Of a DNA stretch of 64,000 bases, positions 37,779-64,000 are shown one piece after another. The first letter of the stretch is position 1. Every line of letters starts with the position of its first letter. The DNA comes from Actinomycetota bacterium. GTDB lineage: Bacteria; Actinomycetota; Humimicrobiia; Humimicrobiales; Humimicrobiaceae. Under the pieces are notes generated by a model. It was not told the DNA's origin. It did not search any database and was given only the letters and a program-made list of their open reading frames with translations. The stretch lies in NCBI GenBank assembly GCA_012837825.1, contig DUQM01000015.1:11318-75317 (forward strand). Reading direction: 5' to 3'. The translations under genes were made by a program, and so were the position numbers.

Positions 37779-38927
37779 TCAGGCATTCTTTCTTGTTTTC
37801 CCGTAGACATAACCAAGTGCTTTTGCCGTATCTATAAAAAGAAGCATAAAAGGCGCAAGCACAATAGACAGCATTTTAAGACATACTCTTTTAAAAGGAT
37901 TTCTTATATGTGACCACGTATCATTTACTCTCAGTAGCGGTTTATAGATATAAAACAATATAAGGGGTGCAAAAAGCACCAGAAGCCAGGGACTTGCAAA
38001 AATTGAAGCAACTATTAAGGCAATAAACACTACCAGTGATAAAAATCTGATCAAATGACGATGGGTGTACATTTTCCCGATTGCATCTCCTTTTGCATAA
38101 CGGAAAAATTGTTTAAAAACCATCACAAGACTTTCCCTCATCCTCCAGTAAACTACTGCATCCGGATTGTATGCTATCTTAAATCCTTTCTGAACCAGGT
38201 TAAAGTTAAACTTCATATCTTCTCCATAATCAAGATACCGGGGATATCCTCCGACTGCCCGCCATGCACTTTTTAAAAAGCTTATGTTTCTTGATGAAGG
38301 CATGAACTTTTTGGAATCTATTTCCTTTTTTCCCGGCATTATGCACATCTCAAGAAGTTTTTCAAGAAAAGTAAGCGCGACAGGGTGAGAGAATCCTCCT
38401 GCTGCCGAAAACTGATTTTTATCATCAAAATAATATCTGGTTATTTCAAATGACCAGTTTTTATCAAGACTGCATCCCCCGTCGCTGCCACAGATTATTT
38501 CATTTGATGCATGACTTATTGCAATGTTTCTCCCTTCCGATATATTTGATCCGGGTGAGCTGAACAACCTGATTCTGACTTTAGTTTTCCCGCCTGTTCC
38601 GGCTTCTTCTCCAAAACCGGCAGGGTCTTTCAGGGTCAGGGAAAAATCTTCGATGACTTCTTCATTTTTTACATGAACAGATGCATTATATTGTTTATTG
38701 TTTCCAGCTTTCAGAAACCGGTTATCTGATTTTTCTGAAAAGAAATTAATTACGCATGCAATGGTATTATCTGAAGAACCGCCGTCAACAATGATTATTT
38801 CTTCAGGAATAAAGTTCTGCTCAAGCAAGCTTTTAAGAAAACCGGTTATTGATCTTTCCTCATTAAAAATAGTTGTTATAAAACTGACTTTTTCTAACAC
38901 TTTCTGGTATTTTTTTTCCATTTTCAT
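37779..38927 (-). CDS. Glycosyltransferase family 2 with C-terminal transmembrane region
   Basis: The N-terminus has GT-A hallmarks (VSFITTIFNEERSI…IIIVDGGSSDNT, CGSDGGCSLD DxD-like). It has an inserted low-complexity segment and C-terminal TM helices. Confidence 0.65.
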   Translation of the reverse strand: MKMEKKYQKVLEKVSFITTIFNEERSITGFLKSLLEQNFIPEEIIIVDGGSSDNTIACVINFFSEKSDNRFLKAGNNKQYNASVHVKNEEVIEDFSLTLKDPAGFGEEAGTGGKTKVRIRLFSSPGSNISEGRNIAISHASNEIICGSDGGCSLDKNWSFEITRYYFDDKNQFSAAGGFSHPVALTFLEKLLEMCIMPGKKEIDSKKFMPSSRNISFLKSAWRAVGGYPRYLDYGEDMKFNFNLVQKGFKIAYNPDAVVYWRMRESLVMVFKQFFRYAKGDAIGKMYTHRHLIRFLSLVVFIALIVASIFASPWLLVLFAPLILFYIYKPLLRVNDTWSHIRNPFKRVCLKMLSIVLAPFMLLFIDTAKALGYVYGKTRKNA

Positions 38928-39913
38928 GAACCTGACAAATAAGATTTTATTGCTTTAAAATAATTACATGATCTTATAATATTTTTTCTTTTAAAAGTAA
39001 AAAGATATAATAATAAAAACAGAAAAGCTCTTTTGAGATTCCCGCAAAAACATAGAAAACTAATGACAAGCGCATGTTTTCCGGAATGATTTTTTTCAAA
39101 ATACAGTTTTCTGCTTTTCCATATTCCTTTTTCCCTGTTTGCAAAGTCCCTTAAAGCAATGGCGCTGTCCAGATGAATTATTTCAAAATCCGGAAAGTAA
39201 TAATTTTTATAGCCTTTTTTTTTCAGCCTCTTGCAGAGATCTGTATCTTCGCTGTACATGAAATAATCTTCATCAAATCCGTTCATGCTGAAAAATAATT
39301 CTTTCTTTATTAACAAAAAAGAACCTGAAACCCAGTCTACTTCCCTGCTTTCTCTATGATCCCACCATGTCATGAAATAAGAACCGAAAATGCGTGATTT
39401 CCTGAATAATTTTGCCAGAAAAAAACTTTCATAAAACTGTCTGGCAATTGTCGGGAATGTTCTGCAACTGAACTGAAGAGTGCCGTCTATATTCAGCGTC
39501 TTTACACCCAGAGCTCCCATCCTGTCGCCTGAATCTGCTTTTTCTTCTACAAAAGAAAGCAGAATATCAGGATTCTTTGTTTTTATCACTGTATCAGGGT
39601 TGAGAAATACAAGATACTCTGATTCTGCCTGTCTTGCTGCTTCATTTGAAGCAAAGCAAAAGCCTGTATTTGTTTTTGATTCAATCAGTCTCAAATTAGT
39701 ATTCATTAAGCATTTTTCTCTGAGAAATTCCAGGCTGCCATCTGTTGAACCGTTGTCGAAAAAAATCGCCTCCCAGACAGAATCATACGATTTTTTATAA
39801 TTAACAGCACTTTTTTCCCCGTAGCCGGTATTTAATTCCTCAAGGCTTTCCAAAAGCCCGTTCAGAAAATCCATACCATTATAATTTACTATTATGAAGC
39901 TTAATATTTTCAT
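38924..39913 (-). CDS. Glycosyltransferase family 2
   Basis: FIIVNYNGMDFL…, FFDNGSTDGS, LNPDTV and a (Q/E)xxRW-like region, typical of GT2 rhamnosyl/glucosyltransferases. Confidence 0.7.
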   Translation of the reverse strand: MKILSFIIVNYNGMDFLNGLLESLEELNTGYGEKSAVNYKKSYDSVWEAIFFDNGSTDGSLEFLREKCLMNTNLRLIESKTNTGFCFASNEAARQAESEYLVFLNPDTVIKTKNPDILLSFVEEKADSGDRMGALGVKTLNIDGTLQFSCRTFPTIARQFYESFFLAKLFRKSRIFGSYFMTWWDHRESREVDWVSGSFLLIKKELFFSMNGFDEDYFMYSEDTDLCKRLKKKGYKNYYFPDFEIIHLDSAIALRDFANREKGIWKSRKLYFEKNHSGKHALVISFLCFCGNLKRAFLFLLLYLFTFKRKNIIRSCNYFKAIKSYLSGS

Positions 39914-39942
39914 GAATTCAGTTCAGGTATAAATAAAAAATA

Positions 39943-41625
39943 TCAGTCTTTTTTTAATTTTTCGGTAGCTTCAGCAATAATTTTTAAAAGATTCTCTTCA
40001 AAATTTTTGTTTGAATATTTCCGGGAATCGCTTATTGCCCTGAATTTTATTTTATCAATATGATCATAATTTTTTATAACATAAATAGTCTTTTCTTTCA
40101 GCTCAGAAATATCTTCGAATTTAAAGCCGTTTACTGCCTCTTCTATTATTTCTTTCTGACCTCCCCTGTTTATAACAACAGGAATACATCCAGCAGACAT
40201 CGCTTCAACGGTTGTTATGCCGAAATGTTCAAATTTTGCAGGATTTTTATTTTCATCTTCATTCAGCCCGGCAGCATGCCAGAAGATCATTGCCTTTGAA
40301 AAAAGGTCTTTAAGCTCGCTCCAGGAAATATTGGTCCTTATTTCGATAGGATAACCCTCGGATATTTCTTTTATTTTTTCAACATATGCAGTATGGCTTT
40401 CCCGGTTTTCAAGACCGCCCGCAAGAATCAGTCTGTAATCTTTCATCTCATTCGGATCGGTTTTTACCATTTCTGTAAATGCTCTGGCAAGCTCATACTG
40501 TTTTTTATTATGATGCTCGGGGAAAAATCTTCCCACGCTCAGAATTATTTTTTCCTTTGATCCTGCCTTGAAGCTTTCAGTATCAACAGGAGGAAAAAGT
40601 ATTCTGCTGTCTTTTTTCCAGTATCTTTTTATCCAGTATTCCGTGTACCCTGATATTGACAGTATTTCATTATAACTTTCCAGAAATTTAAAACCTGAAG
40701 GATAGGTTACAAGAAACATCGGGATATATCCGAGAATTTTAAAAAAAATCTTTTTCGGAAGGCTGATATCTGATTCATCATATAAAACAACACCGAGCTT
40801 TCTTGAGTCCTGTTCCCGGCCGTTTTTACCTGAGGGAGTAAAAACATCGGAACTGATTTTAATATAACTGACTTCATCCGGTCTGACTGGTACTTTAATA
40901 CTCTTTTTCTGACCTGCCCCCAGATTCTCTTCAATGATTACAGAAGGAGACCGGGATACTGCTGACGGATGTACAGATATTCTTACGCTCATATTCTCCA
41001 GGCCGGTATCTACGGGATTTTTTATACCCAGCTTTATAAACAAATCATTATTCTTTTTATCATCTTCGGAAAAATACATATTATCCGGAATAAAGCTGCT
41101 TCTGTCTGCTCTTATTATTATTTCCCCGGTACTCCAGCTTCCTCTTCCAAGCATAAATCTTTTTAAATCATAAATTCCTTCAGTTATTTCGTTTCTTCCA
41201 GGAGATGAAAGAAATTTTTCAGATTTTCCGTAAAGCCATCTCGCCGGTTTCCTGAAAAAGGCCAGCAAAAAACGATGAACAGGCCTGAAGTCTGAATCAA
41301 ACGGAGTGGGAAAATAGCACACATATATATTGTATTTTGCCCTGGGCGCAAAAGCGCTTAAATAAGTTGCATTTATAAATATGTCATAGCCGCCTGTAAT
41401 GTTTTGAGCATAATCATCAGAAATAAAGGGCAGGATTCTCAGTTCCGTCTCTGACAGATCCAGGTTCAGCCTTTCAGAAACTTCCGATAAATCGCTGTAA
41501 AGATCTGTAATCAGATCAACCTTATAGTTATTATTTTTTGACAATACTTCTGCCATTTTACAGCTGTATCTTTCACCGCCGCCGAGAGTTGACAGATACC
41601 TGTCAAAAATACCGATTTTTATCAT
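39943..41625 (-). CDS. Glycosyltransferase family 4 (GT-B, RfaB-like) with extended N-terminal domain
   Basis: C-terminal GT4 donor-binding region (…GITTVEAMSAGCIPVVINRGGQKEII…) and a large N-terminal domain of about 330 aa. Confidence 0.65.
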   Translation of the reverse strand: MIKIGIFDRYLSTLGGGERYSCKMAEVLSKNNNYKVDLITDLYSDLSEVSERLNLDLSETELRILPFISDDYAQNITGGYDIFINATYLSAFAPRAKYNIYVCYFPTPFDSDFRPVHRFLLAFFRKPARWLYGKSEKFLSSPGRNEITEGIYDLKRFMLGRGSWSTGEIIIRADRSSFIPDNMYFSEDDKKNNDLFIKLGIKNPVDTGLENMSVRISVHPSAVSRSPSVIIEENLGAGQKKSIKVPVRPDEVSYIKISSDVFTPSGKNGREQDSRKLGVVLYDESDISLPKKIFFKILGYIPMFLVTYPSGFKFLESYNEILSISGYTEYWIKRYWKKDSRILFPPVDTESFKAGSKEKIILSVGRFFPEHHNKKQYELARAFTEMVKTDPNEMKDYRLILAGGLENRESHTAYVEKIKEISEGYPIEIRTNISWSELKDLFSKAMIFWHAAGLNEDENKNPAKFEHFGITTVEAMSAGCIPVVINRGGQKEIIEEAVNGFKFEDISELKEKTIYVIKNYDHIDKIKFRAISDSRKYSNKNFEENLLKIIAEATEKLKKD

Positions 41626-41707
41626 CTTGCTTTGATCACTCTTTTTTAATCAATTTTTTATTCCGGAAACAAAACCTGATATCCAATAATAATAAAAAAA
41701 GAAAAAA

Positions 41708-43210
41708 TTAAAAATCATTTAACCATTTTATTATTTCATCATCGCTTATAATTTTATTTTTTCTTATTTTTATTCTTTCCGGAAGTTTCCGGAAAAACAG
41801 TATAAAAAATTCAAAAAGTATTCTTATCCTTATAGGGACATCCGGTCTTGAAGAAGATATTTTTCTTATTTTTAAAATTATCCCGTATGCCAGGCCAATG
41901 AATGCCGATGCAGCAAAAGACAGATAATTTTTTATAAATGCTCCGAACCATGCACATTTGTATATCATCAGCATCCTGTTTCTCAGCACATGATATGTAA
42001 AGCTATATGACCATTCTGTTCCGGACCCGCAATGCAGATGTCTTAGCACAGAATCAGCACAGATATAACTTCTGTATCCTGAAAGTTTAAGGCGCCAGAA
42101 AAAATCTATATCTTCATAATATGTGAAAAATTTACTGTCAAAAAAGCCTGCAGCCTCCAGAACGCTTTTTCTGCATAAAAATCCTGTGCCGGGTATGGCA
42201 AATACTTCTGTTATTTTTTCATCCCGGGCTGCCGGAATTTCTGCCTGGGTTCTTGTGTCTGATTCTGAATCAAATTCGTCATAACCTATTTCTTTTGCAT
42301 AGAATTTTTTATTTATCATGCTGCCTCTGCTGTTCACAATATATCGCGGGGCCTGCAAACCGGCATCATTAATTTCAAATGCAATTATTTCCCTGTTGTT
42401 TTCAATTGTTTTTGAAATAATTTCCTTATCTGCGATTTTTATATTAATCCTCTCACCGACCGGCAGGACTGAAAAATCAATTCTGATACTTATTTTAAAA
42501 TTACTGTCAGGCACAGGAATTCCTATAAGAGATTTTCTTTCAGTTTTATAAATAATCTCCCCATTGCTGTTCCTTCCTGCAGGGACTATTCCCGAAAGAT
42601 ATCTTATGCTTCTTTTTAGTAAAAACCCGGTAATTTCACTTTCATTTTTTTGCTGTTGCTGTGATTCATGGGATTTATCATAAATTTCAGAAATAATATT
42701 TAATTCAATTTTGTTTATTTCAGCACAATGGGTGTCGCCGCTGCCGCTACCTGTATTATTCCTTTCAAAACAGATGTTCAGCGGGTAATAGCGGTAATAA
42801 AAAAATATCTTTGAGCCTATTGCCCCGACTTTGCAGCTTCTGTTCCCGGAATCAGCTGATTCCTTTTCTTTTTCGAATAAAGCCCTGACCATCGCTAAAA
42901 GCCATCCGGGTTCAGCCACACAATCATTATTGATTATTGCAATTAGTTCTCCGTCTGCATGGCTTAAACCGATATTATTTCCTTCTGCAAATCCGGTATT
43001 TTTCCTGCATCTGATTATTTTTACAAAAGGGAAATTTTCCTGTGTAAAGCGGACTGAATCATCGCCGGAAGCATTGTCAACCATTATGATCTGGATTTTA
43101 TCTTTCGGATAGTCCAGGAGGCTGAGCGATTCAAACAGATTTTTGAGATAAACTTTTCCGTTATAATTTACTGTTATAATGGAAACAAGAGGCAAAGAAT
43201 TTAAATTCAA
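41708..43210 (-). CDS. Glycosyltransferase family 2 with long internal insertion
   Basis: The N-terminus VSIITVNYNGKVYL…IMVDNASGDDS…IINNDCV is split from the C-terminal GT2 region (…YYEDIDFFWRLKLSGY…) by an insert of about 200 aa. Confidence 0.65.
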   Translation of the reverse strand: MNLNSLPLVSIITVNYNGKVYLKNLFESLSLLDYPKDKIQIIMVDNASGDDSVRFTQENFPFVKIIRCRKNTGFAEGNNIGLSHADGELIAIINNDCVAEPGWLLAMVRALFEKEKESADSGNRSCKVGAIGSKIFFYYRYYPLNICFERNNTGSGSGDTHCAEINKIELNIISEIYDKSHESQQQQKNESEITGFLLKRSIRYLSGIVPAGRNSNGEIIYKTERKSLIGIPVPDSNFKISIRIDFSVLPVGERINIKIADKEIISKTIENNREIIAFEINDAGLQAPRYIVNSRGSMINKKFYAKEIGYDEFDSESDTRTQAEIPAARDEKITEVFAIPGTGFLCRKSVLEAAGFFDSKFFTYYEDIDFFWRLKLSGYRSYICADSVLRHLHCGSGTEWSYSFTYHVLRNRMLMIYKCAWFGAFIKNYLSFAASAFIGLAYGIILKIRKISSSRPDVPIRIRILFEFFILFFRKLPERIKIRKNKIISDDEIIKWLNDF

Positions 43211-43233
43211 TTATTACCTTTCGGAAAAATTTC

Positions 43234-45546
43234 CTAAAGTTTTCTTGCAAGAAAATATCTGCTTGTAAACTGAAGGCCTATCAGTTTGTCGATATTATCA
43301 AAATCCTTGCTTATAAGATCTATTTTATCTTCGATTCCGGCTTTTTCCTCAGTGCCGGTCTTTAAATTTGAAATTATCTGCTTAAGCTCATTCATATCAT
43401 AGCCAAGATTTTTTATTTCAAACATAAGCTGTTTAAATATATTAAAATATATAAGTATGAGCCTTTCCCTGTTTTTCCTGTTAAGCTCGTTAATTTCATT
43501 GTTTATCTGCAGATGAATATTGTTGTTAATTGATTTCATGACTTCATTGAAACTCTTCCTTACATTCTCAAAATAAAGACTCGTAAGTGAATAGAAATAT
43601 TTTTTCAATTTCCCTTTTACCGATCTGTCACTGTTAAGCTCTTCGGAACTCAGGATATCAAACTTGCTTAAAAGCTTTAAGCTCCTGAAATTATCCTGTT
43701 TCATCTTAATCTCAAATAATTCAAATAATTCATTTTTGCCGTATATCTCTCCTATCTCGGAATAAGCTTTTGAAAGATCTGATTCTTCATCGGATTTTTC
43801 ATAATTTCCTTTTTCTATAATGTCAAACCCTACATTTTTCAGGATATATTCGATTGTAAAGTTGTCTATGGTTTCTCTGTTGTCAAATGATTTTCCGCTA
43901 ATATTTACCAGCTGGCTGAGGCCTTTTTTTTCAGGAATTGAGAAAAACAATATTCCGTCATTTTTTAGCCGCATATTTATAATATTTACTATGTCATAAA
44001 AATTTTTGGAGGTAAGGCTTTGAAATGCATTATTGACTATGACTGTATCAAAACTGGTTCTTTTAAGAATTAAATTCTTTATCCTGCTTATTGTCCCCTG
44101 ATAATTGTCGTCAATTTTGTTTTTTTCAGATTCAGGATTTGTTTCAATAAAAAAGACTTTCCCAAGTTCATTTTCGCCGATATATTGCGCATCTCTGTTT
44201 TTGTTATCCGTTATGAATAAAGCATTTGTAATACCTTCAATATTATTCTTGACAAGATTTATCATTTTTTTATTCTGCATCTCAATGATTTTAAAAAGAT
44301 TCTTCTTGTCCGGTGCAGGTTCTGACTTTGCACAGTAATCAGCCAGAGGTGCGGCTACATTCTGCCATAAATATTTAGGTGCAATCTTATTAAGGTTTCT
44401 CTTGTATATTTCCCTCAGGCTTTTATTGGAAAGAGTGCTGTCAAGAACACGCGCAAGATTCTGAGCATTCTCATACTTAACTACTTCTCCGATATTTTCT
44501 TCCTTGACCAGTTTTGCTATTGAATCTCCCTCAGTTGTAATTATGGGAAGCCTTGCCCATATATAGTCCATTACTCTGGTTCTGTATGAAAACTCGGTCT
44601 CTATTCTTTTCTGGTGAATTGATATTCCCACATCCGCTTCCAGAAGAAAATTCTGTCTAAGATCATAGGGAGCCCATTCATTGAAAAACACATATTCATC
44701 CAGAAGCTCAAGCTCTTTGCAGAAATTTATCGCTTCTATGCATTTCTGCATTTCGGGGAGTTTGGGGTCAGGATGCTTAATGCCTAAAAATACAAGCTTT
44801 ATATCGTTTCTGTGCCTTGAAAGCTCCCAGACAGATTTAATAGCTGTAATCGGGTCAAGCCAGTTCCATATGCCTCCGCCCCAGAGGATTATCTTGTCCT
44901 CAGCTTTTATTTTTGGAAAAACAGTTCTTATCATTTCCCGGTTATGCTCAGGAGCATTTGCGGGTATCCCGAAAGGCACAACATCTATAAGCTTTCTCAG
45001 TGAACTGTCATTGTCATAATTATAAGGGTTTATTCTACCAAGAGAAGCCAGCATGCCTATCCAGTAATCTCTTTGTTTCTCACTTGCGCAAATAAAAAAA
45101 TCTCCGATTGAAAGCTGTGTATTAAGTATATTAAGGTTATTTTTGTCAATCCTGACTCTTTCTGCCTCATTTTCATTCCTGTACATTTCAAGGCTCTCGA
45201 GGTTAAAAGGATTGTAAAGGTCAACAACTATCTTTCCTTTGAAATTTCTGATATATGGGAAGTAATAAAGAAGATGCCCCTGTATAAAAATGGTATCTGC
45301 AGATTCCATGGCTTTTTGTATGGATTTGTAATTATTTAAATCATAGGTAAAAGATCTGAAGCCCGGTGTTCCTATATCAATCTTATTGGGTACGGCAAGA
45401 GTTACATCGCAAACTGCTGAAAGAATTTTGGATAATTCATAGAATCTAATTCCCGGACCGGCCATATTCTGTCCGACAAAATCATAGCTTATTATCAGAA
45501 CTCTTTTCTTCCCAATTATATTTTCAGAAATTATCTCATTTTCCAT
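43234..45546 (-). CDS. Multidomain glycosyltransferase (GT4-like N-terminal module) fused to a class I SAM-dependent methyltransferase-like domain and C-terminal coiled coil
   Basis: The N-terminal ~420 aa are paralogous to the C-terminal module of the 61608.. ORF (QLSIGDFFICASEKQRDYWIGMLASLGRINP…IDVVPFG versus QLYWGDFFLCASERQRDFWLGMLAALNRINP…IDVVPFG). The middle region VIVNNAFQSL…DGILFFSIPEKKG resembles an MTase. The C-terminus is rich in heptads. Confidence 0.55.
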   Translation of the reverse strand: MENEIISENIIGKKRVLIISYDFVGQNMAGPGIRFYELSKILSAVCDVTLAVPNKIDIGTPGFRSFTYDLNNYKSIQKAMESADTIFIQGHLLYYFPYIRNFKGKIVVDLYNPFNLESLEMYRNENEAERVRIDKNNLNILNTQLSIGDFFICASEKQRDYWIGMLASLGRINPYNYDNDSSLRKLIDVVPFGIPANAPEHNREMIRTVFPKIKAEDKIILWGGGIWNWLDPITAIKSVWELSRHRNDIKLVFLGIKHPDPKLPEMQKCIEAINFCKELELLDEYVFFNEWAPYDLRQNFLLEADVGISIHQKRIETEFSYRTRVMDYIWARLPIITTEGDSIAKLVKEENIGEVVKYENAQNLARVLDSTLSNKSLREIYKRNLNKIAPKYLWQNVAAPLADYCAKSEPAPDKKNLFKIIEMQNKKMINLVKNNIEGITNALFITDNKNRDAQYIGENELGKVFFIETNPESEKNKIDDNYQGTISRIKNLILKRTSFDTVIVNNAFQSLTSKNFYDIVNIINMRLKNDGILFFSIPEKKGLSQLVNISGKSFDNRETIDNFTIEYILKNVGFDIIEKGNYEKSDEESDLSKAYSEIGEIYGKNELFELFEIKMKQDNFRSLKLLSKFDILSSEELNSDRSVKGKLKKYFYSLTSLYFENVRKSFNEVMKSINNNIHLQINNEINELNRKNRERLILIYFNIFKQLMFEIKNLGYDMNELKQIISNLKTGTEEKAGIEDKIDLISKDFDNIDKLIGLQFTSRYFLARKL

Positions 45547-45630
45547 AGAAACTCCTGTAATTGATTGTTTAAAGTTTAATAATAGAATAAATTCAGATTA
45601 ATTAAAATAATTAAATGTTTTTTAATTGGT

Positions 45631-46677: not shown

Positions 46678-46683
46678 AAGTTT

Positions 46684-57236: not shown

Positions 57237-57957
57237 TTACATACCACAAAAAAACCAGAAATCCAAAATCTATGATAAGAAGCACTATATATGAGATAAA
57301 TATGGAAAGTCCTTTTCTTTTTACAGGCCTGAATTTTGTTATTCTCAGTATTTCAATCAGTACTACTCCCAGCAAGAAGATATAAAAAAAAGTAAGATAT
57401 TTGTTGGAGTACAATTTTTTAAAGAATTCCACAAACGGATGGTTTCTAAACCATGGAACTGTCTTTAAATCTTTAAAATAGCCGGGGCCTATTCGAAAAT
57501 TATCTTTCCCGGGTGAATTTAAAAATTTTCCTATGTTTATCCTGTTTAAATCAGCATTGCCGTCTATTTTCAAACTGATTTCTATATAGCTGTAGTCCCT
57601 GCAGTCAAAAGAAATGCCGTCCGTGAAATCATCTTCATTTAAGATGCAGTCAAATGTAAGAGCTTTCTCCGATATTATTATTTTGTCGTTTTCTTCAAAA
57701 GCTGATTTCTCAATATTGTCAAATACCCCGTCAGTGGAAAGAGATCCTGTGAAATTTATTTTTTTCCTGTCAGAACTCCAGGAAATATTGATTTTCCCGC
57801 TATCATCTTCCCAGATAAAATAGCCGAGGCTTACACCGGGCAGAAATAATGTTTTGGTGCATGAAGTAGCAAGCAGCATTATTGCAATTGCCGATACTGC
57901 AAGAAGCATGAGCCTGAAATACAATTTTTTATTTTTTATTTTTTCCGGTATTTTCAT
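57226..57957 (-). CDS. Hypothetical membrane protein (N-terminal signal/lipoprotein-like, C-terminal 2 TM)
   Basis: 243 aa. It overlaps the start of the SGNH gene by 11 nt (operonic). It has no recognisable catalytic motifs. Confidence 0.4.
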   Translation of the reverse strand: MKIPEKIKNKKLYFRLMLLAVSAIAIMLLATSCTKTLFLPGVSLGYFIWEDDSGKINISWSSDRKKINFTGSLSTDGVFDNIEKSAFEENDKIIISEKALTFDCILNEDDFTDGISFDCRDYSYIEISLKIDGNADLNRINIGKFLNSPGKDNFRIGPGYFKDLKTVPWFRNHPFVEFFKKLYSNKYLTFFYIFLLGVVLIEILRITKFRPVKRKGLSIFISYIVLLIIDFGFLVFLWYVNGY

Positions 57958-57969
57958 ATTTATATATTT

Positions 57970-59295
57970 TTATAATCCTGTTTTGTCAGACAGCTCATTT
58001 TCTCTGGAAGTTTTCCTGTTAAACAAATAAATAAGATAAACCATCCACAGGGTAATTCCCGTAAATATGCTCCTGAATATATTCACAAATTTTGCCGGAT
58101 CATAGAACCTGTTTATAAGAGGTATGGGTCCGGGCAGATAAATGAAAAATCTGTGATCAAATGAAGCAAAAAGGAATTTTGTTATAAGATCTCCCCAGTA
58201 AATGAAAACAACTGCCAGAAACAAGAACTGTACCCACTGGAAATAGTACATATTTTTCTGTTTGCCGGCAACATATAAAACAAAAGGAACACTCCATAAA
58301 AGATACTGCGGATGAAAGTATGAAAGCGCCACATATAACAGATAAATCATTGCACAGTACGACATTAAAAAATCGAAGGATTTATTTTTCAGTTTTATGA
58401 AGCTGAGAATCAGTACAGTATAAACAACCAGGAATATAAAAATCCGGTCATGAACTATGAGCTCAAGCTTGGATGAAATAATGTAGTTGAAATGTTCCGC
58501 ATTAAGCAGGGAGAATATAACGCTTTTCCCGAATGCAATATATGATACTGCCTCAATTGCAATCAGGCCGGAAAGACCTATCGCTCCCATAATCATATAA
58601 TCTTTTTTCTTCTCAGCAAGATAAATTATAAGAATCGGAAGAACCATTATCGGAAAAAATCTTATAGCCTCTGCAATGGCAAGGACAAGGACAGCCCAGT
58701 ATTTTCTTTTCTTCTTTGCCAGAAGAAAAGAAAGAAGCGTTACAAAAAGACCGATTGTGTCATGTCTTGCAAAAAGATAAAGTACAAAAATTACAATGGG
58801 GTTGAACATCCAGTACTTGAATATTTTTAATTTTTTCCGAGTGTCTCCGTCATAAAAAAGCCTCAGGATTACAAATATGCAGGCTATGTCAAAAATAAAA
58901 TATAAAAATTTGAATATGGCAAGTATAATAAAAATATTATCGCTTTTTACAAATTCAACCCAGGAAACCCACGTATCCTGATTCAGCAGAATATCTTTAT
59001 ATGAATTAATGAAAGGAAAGATGGTTTTTGACAGCAGAAAATAAACAGAATGTATTATATTTGTTATAAGCTGCTGAAAATCAGAACCTATGTTTCCATT
59101 GAAAACCGTATCCGCTGCTCTCTGATAGGTTGAAAGAAGGTCTCTCTGAAAAAAGAAAGGCATAAAAAGAAACCTGATAAATATGCCTCCAAGAAAATAT
59201 TTGTAAAAAAGAGTTAAAGATCTCCCGTCGTTTGTGATTTCAGGTGAAATAAAAATGCAACCGAGTTTTTTAAAAAAATTTTTTGCTCTTGCCAT
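57970..59295 (-). CDS. Polytopic integral membrane protein (>=10 TM), candidate GT-C-like glycosyltransferase/polymerase
   Basis: 441 aa and highly hydrophobic throughout. Its context within the glycan locus is the only functional clue. Confidence 0.35.
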   Translation of the reverse strand: MARAKNFFKKLGCIFISPEITNDGRSLTLFYKYFLGGIFIRFLFMPFFFQRDLLSTYQRAADTVFNGNIGSDFQQLITNIIHSVYFLLSKTIFPFINSYKDILLNQDTWVSWVEFVKSDNIFIILAIFKFLYFIFDIACIFVILRLFYDGDTRKKLKIFKYWMFNPIVIFVLYLFARHDTIGLFVTLLSFLLAKKKRKYWAVLVLAIAEAIRFFPIMVLPILIIYLAEKKKDYMIMGAIGLSGLIAIEAVSYIAFGKSVIFSLLNAEHFNYIISSKLELIVHDRIFIFLVVYTVLILSFIKLKNKSFDFLMSYCAMIYLLYVALSYFHPQYLLWSVPFVLYVAGKQKNMYYFQWVQFLFLAVVFIYWGDLITKFLFASFDHRFFIYLPGPIPLINRFYDPAKFVNIFRSIFTGITLWMVYLIYLFNRKTSRENELSDKTGL

Positions 59296-59516: not shown

Positions 59517-60308
59517 ATGGATGAGGAAAATAAGATAATCAGTAGCACTTCAGAAGATAAAGACAATGAAATAAAAAAAATAGATGAAAAAGTAAGATCA
59601 AAATCGCTTACAAAACCGGGAGGTTCCAAATTCAAAAAATACTGCGACTTTTTTGTAGGAAAACGCGGATTTTTTGCCTTTCTGAAATATGAGATAATCA
59701 CCGGCCTTTTTGCAAGCTGTCCCGGAGCCGCAGGAATATTTTTAAGAGGTATTTTTTACAGATTTTTATTTAAAAAGGTCGGAAAAGGAGTCAGCTTCGG
59801 TAAAAATATAATGTTCAGGCACCCGAATAAAATAATTATAGGAAATAATGTAGTAATTGATGATAACTGCATGCTTGATGCAAAAGGTAATACTAACGGC
59901 GGAATAGTTATTGAAGATGGCGTATTTCTGGGAAGAAACACTATTTTAAGCTGTAAGGACGGCGATATAATCTTAAGGGAGAATGTAAATCTTGGATTTA
60001 ACTGTGATATCTTCAGCGGCAAAAAGATTGAAATAGGAAAAGATACAATGATCGCGGCTTACACTTATTTTGTGGCAGGCAACTATGTTTATGATTCCGC
60101 AGACAAACCGGCAACTGAAATGGATACCATCTGCAAAGGAATATATGTGGGCGAAAATTGCTGGTTCGGGGCAAAAGCCCTTATATTTGACGGAGTAACC
60201 ATCGGGAGAAACTCAATAATCGGAGGGGCGGCTGTGGTGAATGAAGACATACCTGAATATTCAGTAGCGGTAGGCATGCCGGCAAAAGTCGTAAAATCAA
60301 GAAAATAA
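59517..60308 (+). CDS. Hexapeptide-repeat (left-handed beta-helix) sugar O-acetyltransferase (WcaF/LacA/NodL-like)
   Basis: Repeating [LIV]G-x4 hexapeptides (IIIGNNVVIDDNCML…VFLGRNTILSC…IEIGKDTMIAAYTYF…VTIGRNSIIGGAAVV) and an AG-anchored SD. Confidence 0.75.
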   Translation: MDEENKIISSTSEDKDNEIKKIDEKVRSKSLTKPGGSKFKKYCDFFVGKRGFFAFLKYEIITGLFASCPGAAGIFLRGIFYRFLFKKVGKGVSFGKNIMFRHPNKIIIGNNVVIDDNCMLDAKGNTNGGIVIEDGVFLGRNTILSCKDGDIILRENVNLGFNCDIFSGKKIEIGKDTMIAAYTYFVAGNYVYDSADKPATEMDTICKGIYVGENCWFGAKALIFDGVTIGRNSIIGGAAVVNEDIPEYSVAVGMPAKVVKSRK

Positions 60309-60403: not shown

Positions 60404-61477
60404 TTGAATATAGACAAAAAAAAGTTAAAAAACAGGATTTTTATCGCACTTAGGATTTTAATAAGCGTAGGTATATTATTCTTCCTTTTTAAAACCCAGT
60501 TCGGCAATTTTTCGGAAATCATTTCCTATATTTCCAGGACAAAGGTTAATTTCTGGATGATAGGACTTTCTTTTTTAATGTACTGGCTCGGTATTTATTT
60601 TCTTGTCCTGAGATGGCAGATTCTTTTGAAGACACAGCAGATAAAAGCTTCCATGCCTTTTTTGTTCGGTTCCTATCTTGTCGGATATTTTTTCAACAAT
60701 TTCCTGCCAACCTCTATCGGCGGAGATGTTTACAGGATTTATGACACTTCCAGACTTAAAAACAGTTCAGGCATGAAGGCTGCTTCAATCGTGCTGATGG
60801 AAAGAACCACAGGAGTCGTGAGCTCAATAATATATCTGGTTTTCGCTCTTGCAGTAGGATTCTTAAGGACTTCACATGTTGAATTCAAGATGGGAAAATG
60901 GAATATTTCAAACAACATCCTTATAGTGATGATACTTACATTTTTTATACTGGCGGTTCTTGTAATCCTTATTATGCTTTTCCCTGATTACTTCAGGCTT
61001 AACAAAGTTTTCAGGAAATTAAGATTTCTGCACAAATGGGAAGACAAGCTGAGACAAATGTATAATACATTCAAAGATTTCAGGAAATTCAAGCTTATTA
61101 TGCTTGTGACTATTATTCTGAGCATGCTTCTGCAGTTTACTTTTACTCTTAATTCTTCATTCTGCAGCCAGGGTTTCGGGATAACCCAGCTAAACCTTAT
61201 AGCCTATATATTCATAATACAGATAAGCTCAATACTTACAATGATACCAATATCCATAGGAGGCATAGGAGTCAGAGAAGGCGCTTTTGTAGTGCTTGTC
61301 GGCGCTCTTGGCGGCCCGAAGGACATAGCAACCATAGTTTCAATAGCTGTTCTCATCATGATACTTGTTCCGGGTATTATAGGCGGAATAATATATGCTC
61401 TAAGACCATACATGGACAGAAAAAGAAAACAGGCTGAGATGACAGAAAGCAAGGAATCCCCTCAAAAGGAAGCGTAA
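60404..61477 (+). CDS. UPF0104/lysylphosphatidylglycerol-synthase-TM-domain-like (flippase-like) membrane protein
   Basis: 357 aa with 8 TM helices and the family motif FLPTSIGGDVYRIYD…. Confidence 0.65.
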   Translation: MNIDKKKLKNRIFIALRILISVGILFFLFKTQFGNFSEIISYISRTKVNFWMIGLSFLMYWLGIYFLVLRWQILLKTQQIKASMPFLFGSYLVGYFFNNFLPTSIGGDVYRIYDTSRLKNSSGMKAASIVLMERTTGVVSSIIYLVFALAVGFLRTSHVEFKMGKWNISNNILIVMILTFFILAVLVILIMLFPDYFRLNKVFRKLRFLHKWEDKLRQMYNTFKDFRKFKLIMLVTIILSMLLQFTFTLNSSFCSQGFGITQLNLIAYIFIIQISSILTMIPISIGGIGVREGAFVVLVGALGGPKDIATIVSIAVLIMILVPGIIGGIIYALRPYMDRKRKQAEMTESKESPQKEA

Positions 61478-61607
61478 TATAATACTTTATGGTATCTGCA
61501 ATAGCCTTATTAAAATCCCTGATTTAATGCTGTGATTTTGTGATTATATAATCTTCCTATTTTCAGATCCGGATTTTTTTAATATGTCTTTAATGCAGGC
61601 AGTAATG

Positions 61608-64000
61608 CTATTTACGATTTAAATAGTTTGAAACATAATTAAAAGTTTTTTTCGGTCCGCTTCTGGAAAGATGGTAAAAAAAACTTGATATAAGACATCT
61701 TTTTCTGCCTCCCGGTGATGCTGCGGAGCAGTTATCTTTTTCAAAAGACTGCCCTTCGGTATCCTTAACGGCACTTATAACAGGATCCATGCAAAATTTT
61801 ACAAGCGGGCTGCATGCTTTTTCCCACCTGTAATCATCGGCAATACGGGAAATATTTTCTACACAGCTTTTATAAAATACTTTATCATCAGCAATTTTCT
61901 TTATGGCTTCGGCAATATCCTGTGGATCTTTCTCCTTTACAACCAGACCGATTTTTTCTGTTTTTATAAGATCGCTGAAAAAATCACCTTCTGTCGATAT
62001 TACCGGAAGATCTGCCCAGATATAGTCAAGAACTCTTGTCCTGAATGAAAATCTTGTTTCTATATGAAGAGGATGTGTGATTATTCCTGCATCAGATTCC
62101 ATAAGATAATTCTGTCTTTCATCATATTTCACCCAGCCGAAATTGAAGAAAACATTTTTCTCGAAAATTCCAAGGCTCTTTGCAAGATTTACCGTTTCAC
62201 CGACAAGGGATAGCTCTTTTACCATGGGATTGGGATGCTTTACTCCCATAAAGAATAATTTTATATCATCCCTTTCCAGACTTATGAGTTTCATTGCCTT
62301 TATAAGCGAAAGAGGATCAAACCAGTTATATATTCCTCCGCCCCATATAATCACAAAATCATCTTCCCTGATTCCGCCAACAACTCCCTTCAATACTTTT
62401 GTTGTATGAACAGGTTTACTGTCAGGAAGGCCGAAAGGCACGACATCTATTGTTTTTCTCAATGTGCTGTCTGCATAATAAGTAATCGGGTTGATCCTGT
62501 TTAAGGCAGCAAGCATTCCCAACCAGAAATCTCTCTGTCTTTCTGAAGCACAGAGAAAGAAATCTCCCCAGTAAAGCTGCTCATTTATAGTTTTTACTAC
62601 TTCTTCATGAATCCCTATTCTTTCCTTTATGGGCTTTGAGCTGTATTCTTCAAGGGTTGCAAGGTTATAAGGGTCATATATGTCAAGGATTAAAAACCTG
62701 TCTTTCCTTTTCAGGCTCTTAAATTTGTTAAAAGAAGTTCCGCCGCATAGAATTATATCAGCTCTTTCAACGAGTTTTCCAAGGGAAATGTCATCAGAAT
62801 ACCAGCTTATCTCAAATTCCATATCAGGGAGGTCAGGTTTGTTAGGGCTTGCTATTATTACATGCATGTAGCGGGAAAGGACTTCTGCAAAATTCCATAT
62901 CCTTATAGCCGGACCGGCCATTTCTTTATCTATTACTTCATCCGAGACAAGAAGGATGGTTCTTTTTATTTTCTTGTTAAAAATATCATAGATGCCAAGA
63001 GATGAAAGCATGTTTATCTGCTGTTTCTGATAGTTTTCATCACCGGATACTGAAAGGAATTGTCCTTTGAAATAGGTAAATAATGCCTTGTCGTCTCTTC
63101 TTCTGTTTGATTGAATAAAATCTCTTTTTGCTTTATGTATTGCTATATTGTCAAGAAAATCTTTCACCGCCATCAGGGAACTCAAAGGCTGTGGATCTAT
63201 TTCAAGCTGCCTGATCTTATCACCTATTTTTTTTGAAAGCTCGCTTGATTTTTTATCATTTATGTCGAAATTATAATAACTCTTATAATCAAATTTAAAA
63301 TCGGTAAATATTCTTGCAAAAATATTGGAAAACGTTGCAGCAAGAATGGCAGAAAGACTCTGTTCCCCGTAATTCTTATAAAGAGATATAAGGGCATTTC
63401 TTTCTTTAAGATATCTCAGTTTGTCATCGCTGAAAGCTTTTGATGTCCCGTGATGCATGTGGTAAATAATTGAATCAGGGGCAAATACTACTTTATAACC
63501 CAGAACCCAGAGTCTCCATCCAAGATCCACATCTTCATAATAGGCAAAAAAATCCTCGTCAAATCCGCCCGAATTCAGAAAAACATCTCTTTTGACAAGC
63601 ATGGCTCCCCCGTTTACAAAAGGAAGAAATCTTTCTATATTATGATTATCTTTCTCTTTTGGCCTACCGTAATCAATCTGAAAACCCTTTGCTTCAAAAT
63701 TGATCATGCCGCCCGCAAAATCAATACTTTTACCGTCAAAAGAAAGTACTTTGGAGCCTGAGCAGATTATTTCATCTGAGCCGTAGACAGGTCTCAGGAG
63801 TTCTATAAGCCAGTTTTCATCAACTTTGGTGTCATTATTTAAAAAAGCAACATAGTCTCCTTTTGCTTCTGCAGCTGCCTGATTGTTTGCTTTTGCAAAT
63901 CCCAGATTACCATTATTGCAAATGAGTTTTACTTCCGGATAATTATTTCTTACAAATTCAACAGAATCATCATTGGAACCATTATCAACAATAATTATTT
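61608..64000 (-). CDS. Bifunctional GT2 (N-terminal) - GT4-like (C-terminal) glycosyltransferase, 5' end truncated by window edge
   Basis: The reading frame stays open upstream of the tracked Met (63707) to the window end. Translating 63708-64000 gives …IIIVDNGSNDDSVEFVRNNYPEVKLICNNGNLGFAKANNQAAA…, a GT2 N-terminus. The C-terminal module is paralogous to the N-terminal module of 43234..45546. Confidence 0.65.
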   Translation of the reverse strand, partial: IIIVDNGSNDDSVEFVRNNYPEVKLICNNGNLGFAKANNQAAAEAKGDYVAFLNNDTKVDENWLIELLRPVYGSDEIICSGSKVLSFDGKSIDFAGGMINFEAKGFQIDYGRPKEKDNHNIERFLPFVNGGAMLVKRDVFLNSGGFDEDFFAYYEDVDLGWRLWVLGYKVVFAPDSIIYHMHHGTSKAFSDDKLRYLKERNALISLYKNYGEQSLSAILAATFSNIFARIFTDFKFDYKSYYNFDINDKKSSELSKKIGDKIRQLEIDPQPLSSLMAVKDFLDNIAIHKAKRDFIQSNRRRDDKALFTYFKGQFLSVSGDENYQKQQINMLSSLGIYDIFNKKIKRTILLVSDEVIDKEMAGPAIRIWNFAEVLSRYMHVIIASPNKPDLPDMEFEISWYSDDISLGKLVERADIILCGGTSFNKFKSLKRKDRFLILDIYDPYNLATLEEYSSKPIKERIGIHEEVVKTINEQLYWGDFFLCASERQRDFWLGMLAALNRINPITYYADSTLRKTIDVVPFGLPDSKPVHTTKVLKGVVGGIREDDFVIIWGGGIYNWFDPLSLIKAMKLISLERDDIKLFFMGVKHPNPMVKELSLVGETVNLAKSLGIFEKNVFFNFGWVKYDERQNYLMESDAGIITHPLHIETRFSFRTRVLDYIWADLPVISTEGDFFSDLIKTEKIGLVVKEKDPQDIAEAIKKIADDKVFYKSCVENISRIADDYRWEKACSPLVKFCMDPVISAVKDTEGQSFEKDNCSAASPGGRKRCLISSFFYHLSRSGPKKTFNYVSNYLNRK

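Follow-up and report, generated by a model that had tools for sequence, protein, structure and literature searches.

Gene content and setting

The window, 64,000 nucleotides of contig DUQM01000015.1, comes from a member of Candidatus Humimicrobiia, a class of low-GC Actinomycetota that is still uncultured. In its interval 37779-64000, Pfam places GT2 or GT4 domains in nine genes, in agreement with the "at least nine" of the reading first made from the letters alone (here the sequence-only reading). GT2 domains are in 37779-38927, 38924-39913, 41708-43210, 45631-46677, and 54133-55140, GT4 domains are in 39943-41625, 43234-45546, and 46684-48141, and a fusion of both is in 61608-64000. Pfam and fold comparison both uphold the assignments, as does the homology between ArnC, GtrB, and the 335-aa GT2 protein g12 along its full length. 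The genes and one candidate signal are as follows.

37177..37205, minus strand: terminator-like hairpin of 12 pairs then a T run, 3' of the glycosyltransferase operon (consensus match only)
37779..38927, minus strand: g01, GT2, 382 aa, two C-terminal TM helices, last gene of the seven-GT operon (Glycos_transf_2 E = 1 × 10−12, TM prediction, syntenic orthologues)
38924..39913, minus strand: g02, GT2, 329 aa, C-terminal TM helix (Pfam, TM helices, synteny)
39943..41625, minus strand: g03, GT4, 560 aa (Pfam Glycos_transf_1 E = 2 × 10−18, syntenic)
41708..43210, minus strand: g04, GT2, 500 aa, large internal insertion and C-terminal TM helix (Pfam, TM helices, synteny)
43234..45546, minus strand: g05, 770 aa, GT4-like module, putative pseudo-methyltransferase domain, helical arm, terminal strand
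45631..46677, minus strand: g06, GT2, 348 aa, C-terminal TM helix (Pfam, TM helices, synteny)
46684..48141, minus strand: g07, GT4, 485 aa, C-terminal heptad segment and basic amphipathic end, first gene of the operon
48271..50061, plus strand: g08, membrane-anchored PD40 beta-propeller with Thr/Ser-rich linker and Ig-like domains
50238..50708, minus strand: g09, 156-aa membrane protein, always paired with the PD40 gene (synteny)
50807..52987, minus strand: g10, GT-C-type membrane glycosyltransferase (PMT_2), 726 aa, about 9 TM helices
53184..54152, plus strand: g11, NAD-dependent sugar-nucleotide epimerase/dehydratase (domain matches)
54133..55140, plus strand: g12, polyprenyl-phosphate glycosyltransferase (ArnC/GtrB/PgfS-like), two C-terminal TM helices
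55401..57236, minus strand: g13, membrane-anchored DUF11/CLIPPER repeats and SGNH (GDSL) domain (syntenic)
57226..57957, minus strand: g14, 243-aa membrane protein, kept beside g15
57970..59295, minus strand: g15, 441-aa polytopic membrane protein, about 8 TM helices, kept beside g18 orthologues
59517..60308, plus strand: g16, hexapeptide O-acetyltransferase (WcaF/WbbJ-like; domain matches)
60404..61477, plus strand: g17, flippase-like membrane protein (LPG_synthase_TM / TIGR00374; domain matches)
61608..64000, minus strand: g18, GT2-GT4 fusion, 837 aa in full, N-terminal 41 aa beyond the window edge

The sequence-only reading had all the glycosyltransferase genes back to back; that holds for seven, the minus-strand operon 37779-48141 with gaps of −4 to 84 nt, while g12 and g18 stand apart. 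Its figure of more than 15 other glycan-related genes is an overcount, there being nine other open reading frames of at least 150 aa, five or six of them with a glycan-related annotation. It was right that g18 is cut by the window edge, to which the frame is open, and the full version (P0121, 100% identical) adds just the 41 aa. Just past the edge an 845-aa GT4-GT2 fusion protein is encoded, followed by a further GT4.

The g12 protein has full-length PDB matches to ArnC (E = 4 × 10−64) and GtrB (E = 1 × 10−45), with which NCBIfam agrees. The g10 protein passes Pfam PMT_2 at 26.3 bits against a cut-off of 26.1, has weak Agl23/STT3 matches, and has no sequence relative detectable among solved structures. 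G09 has no Pfam match and g14 no family match in domain searches; g15, whose sole family match is GT87 at E = 0.11, is possibly GT-C-like. G08 is found next to the operon in almost every related locus, frequently in duplicate.

A shared GT4-like module and the age of the locus

Two proteins of the locus carry the module that the sequence-only reading had recognized from three pairs of motifs.

44317..45510, minus strand: GT-B (GT4-like) module, g05 residues 13-410, paralogous to the C-terminal part of g18
61791..62966, minus strand: GT4-like module, g18 residues 345-736 (window numbering), paralogous to g05

BLASTP aligns g05 residues 13-405 to g18 345-736 with 42% identity, 64% positives, and 3 gaps (E = 2 × 10−110), and all three motif pairs fall inside this alignment, so the paralogy is real. 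Foldseek matches the g05 module, which has a GT-B fold, to GT4 structures at E = 3 × 10−14, and its invariant residues include E316, R322, R324, and D327. The g07 protein is a third, more distant paralogue (23% to 29% identity, E = 2 × 10−23 and 6 × 10−32) that the sequence-only reading had not mentioned; g03 has no similarity to g05 and lies outside the family.

The paralogy had been taken as a duplication within the locus, and the locus as an island. Glycan clusters are frequently variable, and two copies 16 kb apart in one locus with long motifs in common are what a recent duplication inside a horizontally acquired, variable island would look like. That reading is contradicted here, and we give it next to no credence. 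The g05 and g18 modules form separate clades, each class-wide in Humimicrobiia (bootstrap 199/200 and 167/200), and are exclusive sisters in only 32/200 replicates; a stand-alone Anaerolineae homologue is as near to either as they are to each other. Module identity is 57% to 82% within clades versus 37% to 45% between them, DNA similarity is weak, and third codon positions at identical residues are only 54% identical. The tree, the identity ranges, and the third positions are all evidence against a recent duplication in the locus. The module was instead duplicated before the class radiated, then fused to different partners in g05, g18, and g07.

Nor is there the compositional break expected of an island, GC content being flat across the window. 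The surroundings of the locus are housekeeping genes. Actinomycetota MAGs yielded about 65 related loci, the closest genome being that of Ca. Humimicrobium oleiphilum at 90% identity, and the great majority of these loci keep the order g07-g06-g05-g04-g03-g02-g01, even where g05 protein identity falls to 53%. In two distant genomes g05 and g18 orthologues are on one contig, 28 to 35 kb apart. The interval 37779-64000 is probably a conserved cell-envelope sugar-polymer gene set of this uncultured Actinomycetota group, neither a recent duplication nor a variable island. It is an ordinary type of system with one unusual protein, g05.

The C-terminal half of g05

Beyond its GT module, g05 has three further parts.

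43792..44238, minus strand: class I methyltransferase fold without a glycine-rich SAM loop, residues 437-585
43282..43731, minus strand: helical arm, residues 606-755 (structure model, orthologue alignment)
43240..43266, minus strand: terminal beta-strand, residues 761-769 (pLDDT about 80 in both models)

The sequence-only reading saw here a SAM-methyltransferase-like domain followed by a coiled-coil tail. The fold and the homology are as it supposed: hhalign joins residues 433-591 to methyltransferases with an intact VLDIGCGxG motif at 97.5% (E = 5 × 10−12, 156 columns). Whether g05 is an active bifunctional glycosyltransferase and O-methyltransferase, for instance adding a chain-terminating methyl cap as WsaE or WbdD do, is another matter. 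Its homologs are genuine polysaccharide-cluster methyltransferases, N505 and N506 are conserved at the motif IV position, the window carries SAM-cycle genes, and a methyltransferase-GT fusion has a precedent in WsaE of a Gram-positive S-layer glycan pathway (PMC2943079). Activity is nonetheless unlikely because the SAM loop is missing in all 36 orthologues. At the DxGxGxG position the family has (I/V)T(S/D)NK, and the loop columns hold at most one glycine each, with none in 14 of 16. The EH that is invariant after strand 4 in this methyltransferase family has become NN, and strand 2 does not end in a conserved acidic residue. The best that Pfam methyltransferase models give is E = 0.05 to 0.8, matching with the C-terminal half of the profile alone. 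The domain is also the least conserved folded part of g05, its mean identity being 50% where the GT-B lobes have 70%. In at least one related genome a separate methyltransferase with intact motif adjoins Wzm/Wzt. We infer a non-catalytic pseudo-methyltransferase, although the conserved polar residues T446, D452, K490, D500, N505, and N506 suggest that it may retain ligand binding, and a non-canonical SAM site is conceivable.

The tail is better described as a helical arm. The g05 structure models are of moderate confidence (pLDDT 66.7 and 58.8), the long helices at 643-712 are of low confidence, and a crude heptad scan of g05 falls below its shuffle threshold, so the coiled coil was not borne out. 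As for coiled-coil C-termini said to be carried by several of the GTs, g07 passes the scan at residues 432-461, g18 passes marginally, and no other GT does. The arm is all the same well conserved, residues 606-712 having a mean identity of 67% with no length variation among orthologues, and its motif is also present in the divergent relatives P0248, P0260, and P0253. A search of 1.84 billion representatives with the methyltransferase-like domain plus arm gave 29 matches, mostly fragments of the same family, by which the combination appears almost confined to the g05 family. The terminal strand, RYFLARKL, corresponds by eye to DYAMIARKI or DYAVVGYKI at the C-termini of stand-alone methyltransferases.

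The partner domain in g05 probably derives from a methyltransferase family with N-terminal coiled coils, and it has lost the SAM-binding loop and gained the conserved arm. It may now be the scaffold, docking, or chain-end/length-sensing part of a multi-enzyme polymerization complex, a role that we model on the coiled-coil terminator proteins of ABC-transporter-dependent pathways.

Assembly, export, and destination of the product

An O-antigen or S-layer-glycan likeness, proposed in the sequence-only reading, is apt in view of what relatives have near g18. Beside the g18 orthologue, other Humimicrobiia genomes encode Wzm and a Wzt that bears Wzt_C, together with a Bac_transf priming enzyme, a Wzy_C ligase-like protein, and a methyltransferase whose SAM-binding motif is intact. 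Wzt homologs of about 12 lineages are on contigs equal in length to contigs bearing g05/g18 orthologues. Neither the window nor the 10 kb beyond its end has an exporter homolog (Wzm/Wzt, Wzx), a priming phosphoglycosyl transferase, a polymerase, or a Wzy_C ligase; in genomes of the window's type the exporter position is held by a radical SAM/SPASM protein, an HpnA-like epimerase, and a second flippase-like protein. The GDP-6-deoxyhexose supply genes proposed at 10483-20866 are confirmed (Gmd, at 451 bits, clears its equivalog cut-off, and PGI/PMI passes too), but 17 kb of unrelated genes separate them from the locus, for MinD-like Fe-S proteins, sugar-acid catabolism, a sugar ABC importer, and LacI.

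Taking together the observed gene content, paralogy and its age, synteny, folds, motif I loss, and Wzm/Wzt association in relatives, we consider it likely that the interval makes up most of the conserved locus for a cell-envelope glycan in a bacterium akin to Candidatus Humimicrobium. The machinery would be of the ABC-transporter-dependent type known from O-antigens and S-layer glycans. We infer the lipid carrier, the assembly topology, and the identity and destination of the glycan. The seven-gene operon, from 48141 down to 37779, combines membrane-associated GT2 with soluble GT4 enzymes, which presumably work on the cytoplasmic side of the membrane and assemble a glycan attached to a lipid carrier. 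A polyprenyl-phosphate-sugar branch at 50807-55140 (epimerase, ArnC/GtrB-like synthase, and GT-C enzyme) would add a sugar outside the membrane. The genes around g18, with acetyltransferase, flippase-like proteins, and membrane proteins of uncharacterized families, may be a second assembly block, running on past the window edge with the GT4-GT2 fusion and the further GT4.

A locus that mainly glycosylates proteins is also to be considered, with Streptococcus mutans Pgf, actinobacterial Pmt/Ppm1 O-mannosylation, and Gram-positive S-layer glycan clusters as models, and the PD40/DUF11 membrane-anchored proteins or an S-layer protein as putative acceptors. It overlaps with the envelope-polymer explanation and the two do not exclude one another, but as the main function it has a minor, if appreciable, chance. 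In its favor are the PMT_2 GT-C enzyme, ArnC/PgfS-like synthase, and epimerase found together, the Thr/Ser-rich linker after the g08 membrane anchor, and the synteny across the class of the PD40/TM156 pair and the DUF11-SGNH protein with the GT operon. Loci of relatives hold an Asn-synthase homolog and the Wzy_C protein, which is of the family of the WsaB oligosaccharyl:protein transferase (PMC2943079). Against these, the window is without a Wzy_C homolog, and g10 has its PMT_2 match at threshold and no detectable sequence relative among solved structures; the number of cytoplasmic GTs, seven, points to a glycan that is long or complex, and either a protein or the wall could be the acceptor of such a glycan. 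Much less probable is a polysaccharide that serves in the cytoplasm for storage or as a carrier, comparable to the methylmannose or methylglucose polysaccharides of mycobacteria. It would explain the missing exporter beside the operon, the window does carry GDP-mannose supply genes, and the fold matches include 7qsg, a methylmannose-polysaccharide mannosyltransferase, albeit as just one among hundreds to GT4 structures. The C-terminal TM helices in four GT2 enzymes, the flanking membrane-anchored and presumably extracytoplasmic proteins, the linkage to GT-C and flippase-like genes, and a methyltransferase-like domain without its SAM loop all speak against it.

Comparison with known systems

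The envelope-polymer interpretation leans on a paradigm in which terminator, coiled coil, and GT modules are combined (PMC11231755, PMC3482155, PMC2943079). The sequence-only reading called the fusions unusual, but glycosyltransferases of ABC-transporter-dependent pathways normally have several modules (PMC11231755). The methyltransferase-kinase WbdD, from Escherichia coli O9a / Klebsiella O3, sits on a coiled-coil ruler (PMC3482155, PMC11231755). Like WbdD, g05 has a domain of class I methyltransferase fold joined to an extended helical region; its locus includes multi-module GT4 enzymes and genes that supply GDP-mannose, and relatives have Wzm and Wzt bearing Wzt_C. Unlike WbdD, g05 has its own N-terminal GT4 module, no kinase, and no SAM-binding loop, its helices are inserted inside the methyltransferase fold and are not a C-terminal ruler ending in a membrane helix, it does not pass the heptad scan for coiled coils, no ABC exporter is in the window, and the host is of Actinomycetota, a Gram-positive phylum.

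Klebsiella pneumoniae O7 ORF6 and O12 WbbB have terminator, coiled coil, and GT modules in single polypeptides (PMC11231755). G05 too unites a terminator-type domain with a GT module, but theirs have the coiled coil between an active terminator and the GT modules, whereas its GT module is directly beside a methyltransferase-like domain that is apparently inactive. WsaE of the Geobacillus stearothermophilus S-layer glycan pathway has an N-terminal O-methyltransferase and two rhamnosyltransferase domains (PMC2943079). It resembles g05 in fusing a methyltransferase-fold domain to a GT module in a Gram-positive host, and loci related to that of g05 hold Wzm/Wzt, a priming transferase, a Wzy_C-family protein, and an Asn-synthase homolog. 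It differs in that g05 has the reverse domain order, a GT4-like in place of a GT2 module, and no motif I, in a window with GDP-mannose/Gmd and no dTDP-rhamnose genes or identified S-layer protein.

Closest to the g05 domain are stand-alone methyltransferases of the 3dli type (3dli is the best PDB sequence match of g05, E = 0.015), including a 403-aa protein beside Wzm/Wzt in the related locus L087 and P0263, P0265, and P0266. They are homologous to g05 433-591 with a C-terminal strand motif similar by eye, but they keep VLDIGCGxG, the EH motif, and a DPTH motif, have their coiled coil N-terminally, and are without the GT module or the helical insertion of about 150 aa. The g12 gene, overlapping the epimerase gene and near the GT-C protein, recalls the three-component polyprenyl-phosphate-sugar systems ArnC/ArnT, GtrA/B/C, PgfS/E/M, and Ppm1/Pmt, though g12 does not reach the equivalog cut-offs for ArnC and PgfS, and the window has neither GtrA nor ArnE/F; loci of relatives do include an EamA-like gene of 125 aa. 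Last, while domain families and their order differ from those of WbdA-type polymerases, g18 (GT2-GT4) and the 845-aa GT4-GT2 protein are, like these, two-module enzymes, and in relatives they adjoin Wzm/Wzt.

Gene content and operon structure

From 37779 to the end of the window there are 18 ORFs of at least 150 aa, here called g01 to g18, with the following assignments, those of the GT2 and GT4 genes being by Pfam.

37779-38927, minus strand: GT2 (g01)
38924-39913, minus strand: GT2 (g02)
39943-41625, minus strand: GT4-type, Glycos_transf_1 (g03)
41708-43210, minus strand: GT2 (g04)
43234-45546, minus strand: GT4-type, Glycos_transf_1, 770 aa (g05)
45631-46677, minus strand: GT2 (g06)
46684-48141, minus strand: GT4-type, Glycos_transf_1, 485 aa (g07)
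g08: PD40 beta-propeller protein, membrane-anchored
g09: membrane protein, 156 aa (TM156)
g10: GT-C protein, PMT_2 type
g11: sugar-nucleotide epimerase
54133-55140: GT2 (g12)
g13: DUF11 plus SGNH protein
g14 and g15: two membrane proteins without a family
g16: acetyltransferase, WcaF/WbbJ-like
g17: LPG_synthase_TM protein, flippase-like
61608-64000: GT2 and GT4 both (g18)

The Pfam count is nine GT2 or GT4 genes, as had been claimed from the sequence alone, and five of them are GT2; the more than 15 other glycan genes claimed alongside is an overcount, since the interval has only nine other ORFs. The last gene, g18, is cut by the window edge as described, with 41 aa missing from a full length of 837 aa.

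The genes g01 to g07 have intergenic spacings of -4 to 84 nt, and a strong terminator-like hairpin, recognized by consensus match, lies 3' of them at 37177-37205, so the seven GT genes fit one operon. About 1 kb (36705-37778) separates the last GT gene from a LacI-family gene, and the sole ORF there encodes 85 aa (37318-37575, minus strand). A promoter scan returns 56 matches versus 49 +/- 6.5 expected, which is not above chance. Pfam searched at E up to 10 has no match for g09, g14, or the 85-aa ORF, and for g15 it has nothing other than GT87 at E = 0.11.

Conservation of the locus

The interval had been taken for an island. Across the window, GC content stays within 0.32-0.39 and shows no step at 37779, housekeeping genes are in the window, its left part carrying tmRNA, smpB, ftsEX, prfB, secA, and hpf, and gene order is conserved among relatives, all of which argues against that description. 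The tmRNA gene (81-434, minus strand; Rfam RF00023, 210 bits) directly adjoins smpB (509-985, minus strand), an ordinary pairing that marks the region as core chromosome. By tblastn of the window's proteins against 80 related loci, the order g07-g06-g05-g04-g03-g02-g01 is kept in the great majority of the Humimicrobiia loci, as gene order is in the great majority of the about 65 related loci, with the PD40/TM156 pair (g08 and g09) beside the GT operon, often duplicated, and the DUF11-SGNH gene close by. Orthologues of g05 and g18 are on one contig, 28-35 kb apart, in two distant genomes, so the wider linkage is conserved too.

Two local variations in this layout were seen. The divergently arranged genes for PD40 and the membrane protein of about 156 aa occur as a single pair in the window (48271-50708), whereas many other Humimicrobiia genomes have two such pairs in tandem (loci L006, L009, L010, L014, L065, L066, and L084); the GT operon is always adjacent. 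Between the g05 and g04 orthologues, distant relatives have a 125-aa EamA-like (ArnE/F-like) membrane gene (L084, 12357-12734), and at that place the window has a 23-nt gap (43211-43233) and no homologue of this gene.

The shared GT4-like module

The paralogy between g05 and g18, and the motifs quoted for it in the sequence-only reading, are real on alignment, g05 residues 13-405 matching g18 residues 345-736 at 42% identity with three gaps (E = 2e-110). A third and more distant member of the module is g07 (E = 2e-23 and 6e-32). Two other candidates were set aside, the 560-aa GT4 g03, which has no similarity to the module, and an 845-aa GT4-GT2 protein past the window edge, of which only the GT2 part resembles g18 (24% identity). 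The module is found by itself or as part of a fusion, in which it follows a GT2 or precedes a methyltransferase-like domain. A Chloroflexia genome (L074, 9971-12729) has two tandem stand-alone copies, 34% identical to each other, each with a short coiled-coil-like stretch and a basic amphipathic helix at its end, which resembles the g07 C-terminus.

A two-Rossmann-lobe GT-B fold is modelled with good confidence at g05 15-410 and matches solved GT4 enzymes, Foldseek against the PDB giving sucrose-phosphate synthase, MshA, BshA, WaaG, and PimA at E = 3e-14 to 1e-10. Against the gathering score of 26.4 bits for Pfam Glycos_transf_1 (PF00534), g18 (41.1) and g07 (36.8) are above and g05 (25.6) is just below. 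Homologues from Chloroflexota and Microbacterium share 27 invariant residues with g05 and g18, including a WGGGxxxWxD stretch, and most of these are retained in g07 also. A variant acidic motif, E316-x5-R/K-x-R-x2-D327, is invariant in the same set and common to g07, with a spacing unlike the canonical EX7E of the GT4 C-terminal lobe.

The duplication of the module had been placed within this locus. Full-length g05 homologues (757-784 aa, 53-99% identity) are abundant in metagenomes and, where named, belong to Candidatus Humimicrobiaceae or Actinomycetota MAGs, and among species genomes Ca. Humimicrobium oleiphilum UBA1414 is the closest (90% identity). These organisms also have a separate set of g18 orthologues (815-915 aa, 56-92% identity). 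A module tree with 200 rooted bootstrap replicates puts the g05 orthologues in one clade (199/200) and the g18 orthologues in another (167/200), the two being exclusive sisters in just 32/200. Modules of one clade are 57-82% identical and modules of different clades 37-45%, and a stand-alone Anaerolineae homologue of 456-480 aa has 44-48% identity to both the g05 and the g18 modules. As DNA, the g05 and g18 modules align only in their best conserved stretches, at 68-71%, and where residues are identical their third codon positions agree in 54% of cases. Separate class-wide clades, low between-clade identity, and weak DNA similarity therefore make the duplication older than the radiation of Humimicrobiia and not a recent event in the locus.

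The methyltransferase-like domain of g05

The structure model of g05 has pLDDT 66.7, with its GT-B domain confident and a predicted class I methyltransferase fold, seven-stranded and Rossmann-like, at residues 437-585. The PDB sequence search has no match for g05 as a whole. Pfam methyltransferase models align to g05 at E = 0.05-0.8 only, by the C-terminal half of the profile only, and none is at its gathering score: Methyltransf_11 has 14.6 bits (21.2 needed), Methyltransf_12 14.1 (30), and Methyltransf_31 9.8 (27). A profile of the g05 family matches the methyltransferase 3dli at E = 0.015. The stronger link comes from a 403-aa protein adjoining Wzm/Wzt in the related locus L087, a methyltransferase with an N-terminal coiled coil and an intact VLDIGCGxG, to which an HMM search of 1.84 billion representatives adds three more methyltransferases with both features. 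By hhalign the profile of these four aligns with g05 433-591 over 156 columns at 97.5% probability and E = 5e-12, significance that is obtained only with the four-sequence profile, the L087 methyltransferase alone against the g05 profile scoring a nonsignificant E = 0.14.

The earlier description of a methyltransferase fusion implied that this domain is active. In the alignment, the SAM loop DIGCGxG falls on ITDNKNRD in the window's g05 and on (I/V)T(S/D)NK in the family, and the glycine-rich motif I (E/DxGxGxG) after strand 1 is missing in g05. Over columns 440-455 of 36 orthologues there is at most one glycine per column, and none in 14 of the 16 columns. The invariant EH of the methyltransferase family is NN in g05. 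Hence an active fusion is unsupported, the SAM loop having been replaced throughout the g05 family, and from these residues the domain is probably a pseudo-methyltransferase. This domain, without its SAM loop, is the sole candidate for a chain-terminating activity, and no kinase or Kdo-transferase domain was found.

The helical arm

Residues 606-755 of g05 form a helical arm, with helices predicted at 643-683 and 689-712 at low pLDDT. There is no length variation over 606-712 in the 36 orthologues, and mean identity is 67% for the arm versus 50% for the methyltransferase-like core. The motif SLYFEN-R-SYN...INNNI-LQIN-E-NE-N persists in divergent relatives, one of them from Ca. Hakubella. A coiled coil in g05 is plausible, although a heptad scan, a crude home-made one of low power, scores 0.89, under the 95% shuffle threshold of 0.93. 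How the arm is configured is suggested by the g05 C-terminus, RYFLARKL, which by eye resembles the C-terminal strand DYAMIARKI of stand-alone methyltransferases and is modelled as a confident strand. On that likeness the arm would sit inside the methyltransferase fold, inserted between its last two strands, and would not be a free tail. As to spread, an HMM search of the whole representative library with the methyltransferase-like-plus-arm module has 29 matches at E <= 0.001, mostly fragments of the g05 family.

A putative polyprenyl-phosphate branch, and sugar supply

The GT2 protein g12 is homologous over its full length to ArnC (E = 4e-64, residues 26-334) and GtrB (E = 1e-45), and has a GT2 catalytic domain followed by two C-terminal TM helices (259-277 and 294-312). 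NCBIfam gives it 247 bits for ArnC and 183 bits for PgfS, both below the equivalog cut-offs. Its gene overlaps the epimerase gene and is near g10, which scores 26.3 bits for PMT_2 against a cut-off of 26.1, has about 9 TM helices, and has no relative among PDB sequences. By analogy, g12, the epimerase, and g10 appear to be organized like the polyprenyl-phosphate-sugar systems that attach sugars to polymers or proteins outside the membrane, and the Thr/Ser-rich PD40 protein is a candidate acceptor.

A GDP-6-deoxyhexose supply had been assigned to 10483-20866. The genes there are real: Gmd (451 bits) and a bifunctional PGI/PMI both pass equivalog cut-offs, and with them are a PMM/PGM-like mutase, two ManC-like nucleotidyltransferases, a further SDR, and a GT2, which supports supply of GDP-mannose/GDP-6-deoxyhexose. 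These genes and the glycan locus are 17 kb apart, with unrelated genes between. Amid the GDP-mannose/Gmd genes are SAM-cycle genes, an MtnA/IF-2B-family gene and an S-adenosylhomocysteine hydrolase gene (11684-14035, minus strand). Two neighbouring genes (21301-23003, minus strand) encode MinD/ParA-like P-loop proteins that contain 4Fe-4S ferredoxin inserts and are unrelated to the glycan locus.

Neighbours past the edge and in relatives

Past the window edge, the same genome encodes the divergent GT4-GT2 fusion of 845 aa and a GT4 of 386 aa, followed by a radical SAM/SPASM protein, an HpnA-like epimerase, and another flippase-like protein, the second in the locus. Methylamine genes unrelated to it come next, which puts the end of the locus about 7 kb beyond the window. 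This arrangement recurs in relatives at 78% and 70% identity. In window-type genomes the GT4, radical SAM/SPASM, HpnA-like epimerase, and second LPG_synthase_TM (HpnL-like) genes occupy L081 3060-7349 (about 2.6-7 kb beyond 64000), and more distant relatives have at the equivalent place Wzm/Wzt, a methyltransferase, and a priming enzyme. An export or modification module may possibly have been replaced between the two.

In distant Humimicrobiia the g18 orthologue, a GT4-GT2, and a GT4 directly adjoin Wzm and a Wzt with the Wzt_C carbohydrate-binding domain, and the same neighbourhood has further GT4 genes, the 403-aa methyltransferase with its intact SAM motif, and a Bac_transf priming enzyme. 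Another genome has a 740-aa Wzy_C protein and an asparagine-synthase homologue beside the g18 orthologue. About 12 of the best 120 Wzt homologues are on contigs size-matched to ones with g05 or g18 orthologues, and among those 120, listed down to 68% identity, none was matched to the window-type genus. No Wzm homologue, just generic ABC ATPase similarity, is found in the window, L081, L086, L088, or L001, and the window has no homologue of the export, priming, or ligation genes found in relatives. The gene set in relatives is that of ABC-transporter-dependent O-antigen and Gram-positive S-layer glycan pathways, and with Wzm/Wzt, priming, and Wzy_C genes beside g18 orthologues, the general likeness to O-antigen or S-layer glycan synthesis in the sequence-only reading is reasonable.

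Discussion

Taken as a whole, the main observations are real, while the reading of the interval as an island, recently duplicated and with an active methyltransferase fusion, is unsupported. A cytoplasmic methylated polysaccharide as the product was weighed as well and is judged very unlikely. What remains of interest is a glycan locus conserved throughout an uncultured class of Actinomycetota, and in it a GT whose probable pseudo-methyltransferase holds an inserted, conserved arm. In this way g05 probably illustrates a terminator-type methyltransferase recruited as a noncatalytic part of a GT. Humimicrobiia are widespread, uncultured anaerobic Actinomycetota whose cell envelope, to our knowledge, has not been described. 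A GT operon conserved in the same order across the class is a concrete candidate for making their main envelope glycan. For annotation, g05 should not be called a methyltransferase, paralogous modules in one locus are not necessarily recent duplications, and a dense glycan cluster is not necessarily an island.

We think it rather unlikely that g05 represents an undescribed way of organizing or limiting glycan polymerization in Gram-positive-type bacteria, in which a GT is permanently joined to a dead methyltransferase. Under that reading the domain's role would have shifted from capping the chain to reading its end or binding a ligand, and the conserved arm, inserted in the methyltransferase fold, would dock other GTs of the operon or set product length. 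If true, an envelope polymer specific to the class Humimicrobiia would be the product of the seven-GT operon together with its PD40/TM156 partners.

In ABC-transporter-dependent O-antigen and S-layer glycan pathways, chains are terminated by a capping methyltransferase, in many cases on a coiled-coil protein, and the cap is recognized by Wzt (PMC11231755, PMC3482155, PMC2943079). An extra length-determining factor is probably needed in S-layer glycan pathways (PMC2943079), and g05 bears on how chain length is set in the Gram-positive ABC-transporter-dependent ones. Compared with WbdD, WbbB, and O7 ORF6, which are coiled-coil terminator/ruler proteins, g05 is probably without an active terminating domain and the window is without Wzm/Wzt, and the Humimicrobiia polymer, if the dead-methyltransferase reading of g05 were true, would be made by a mechanism outside the WbdD/WbbB ruler model.
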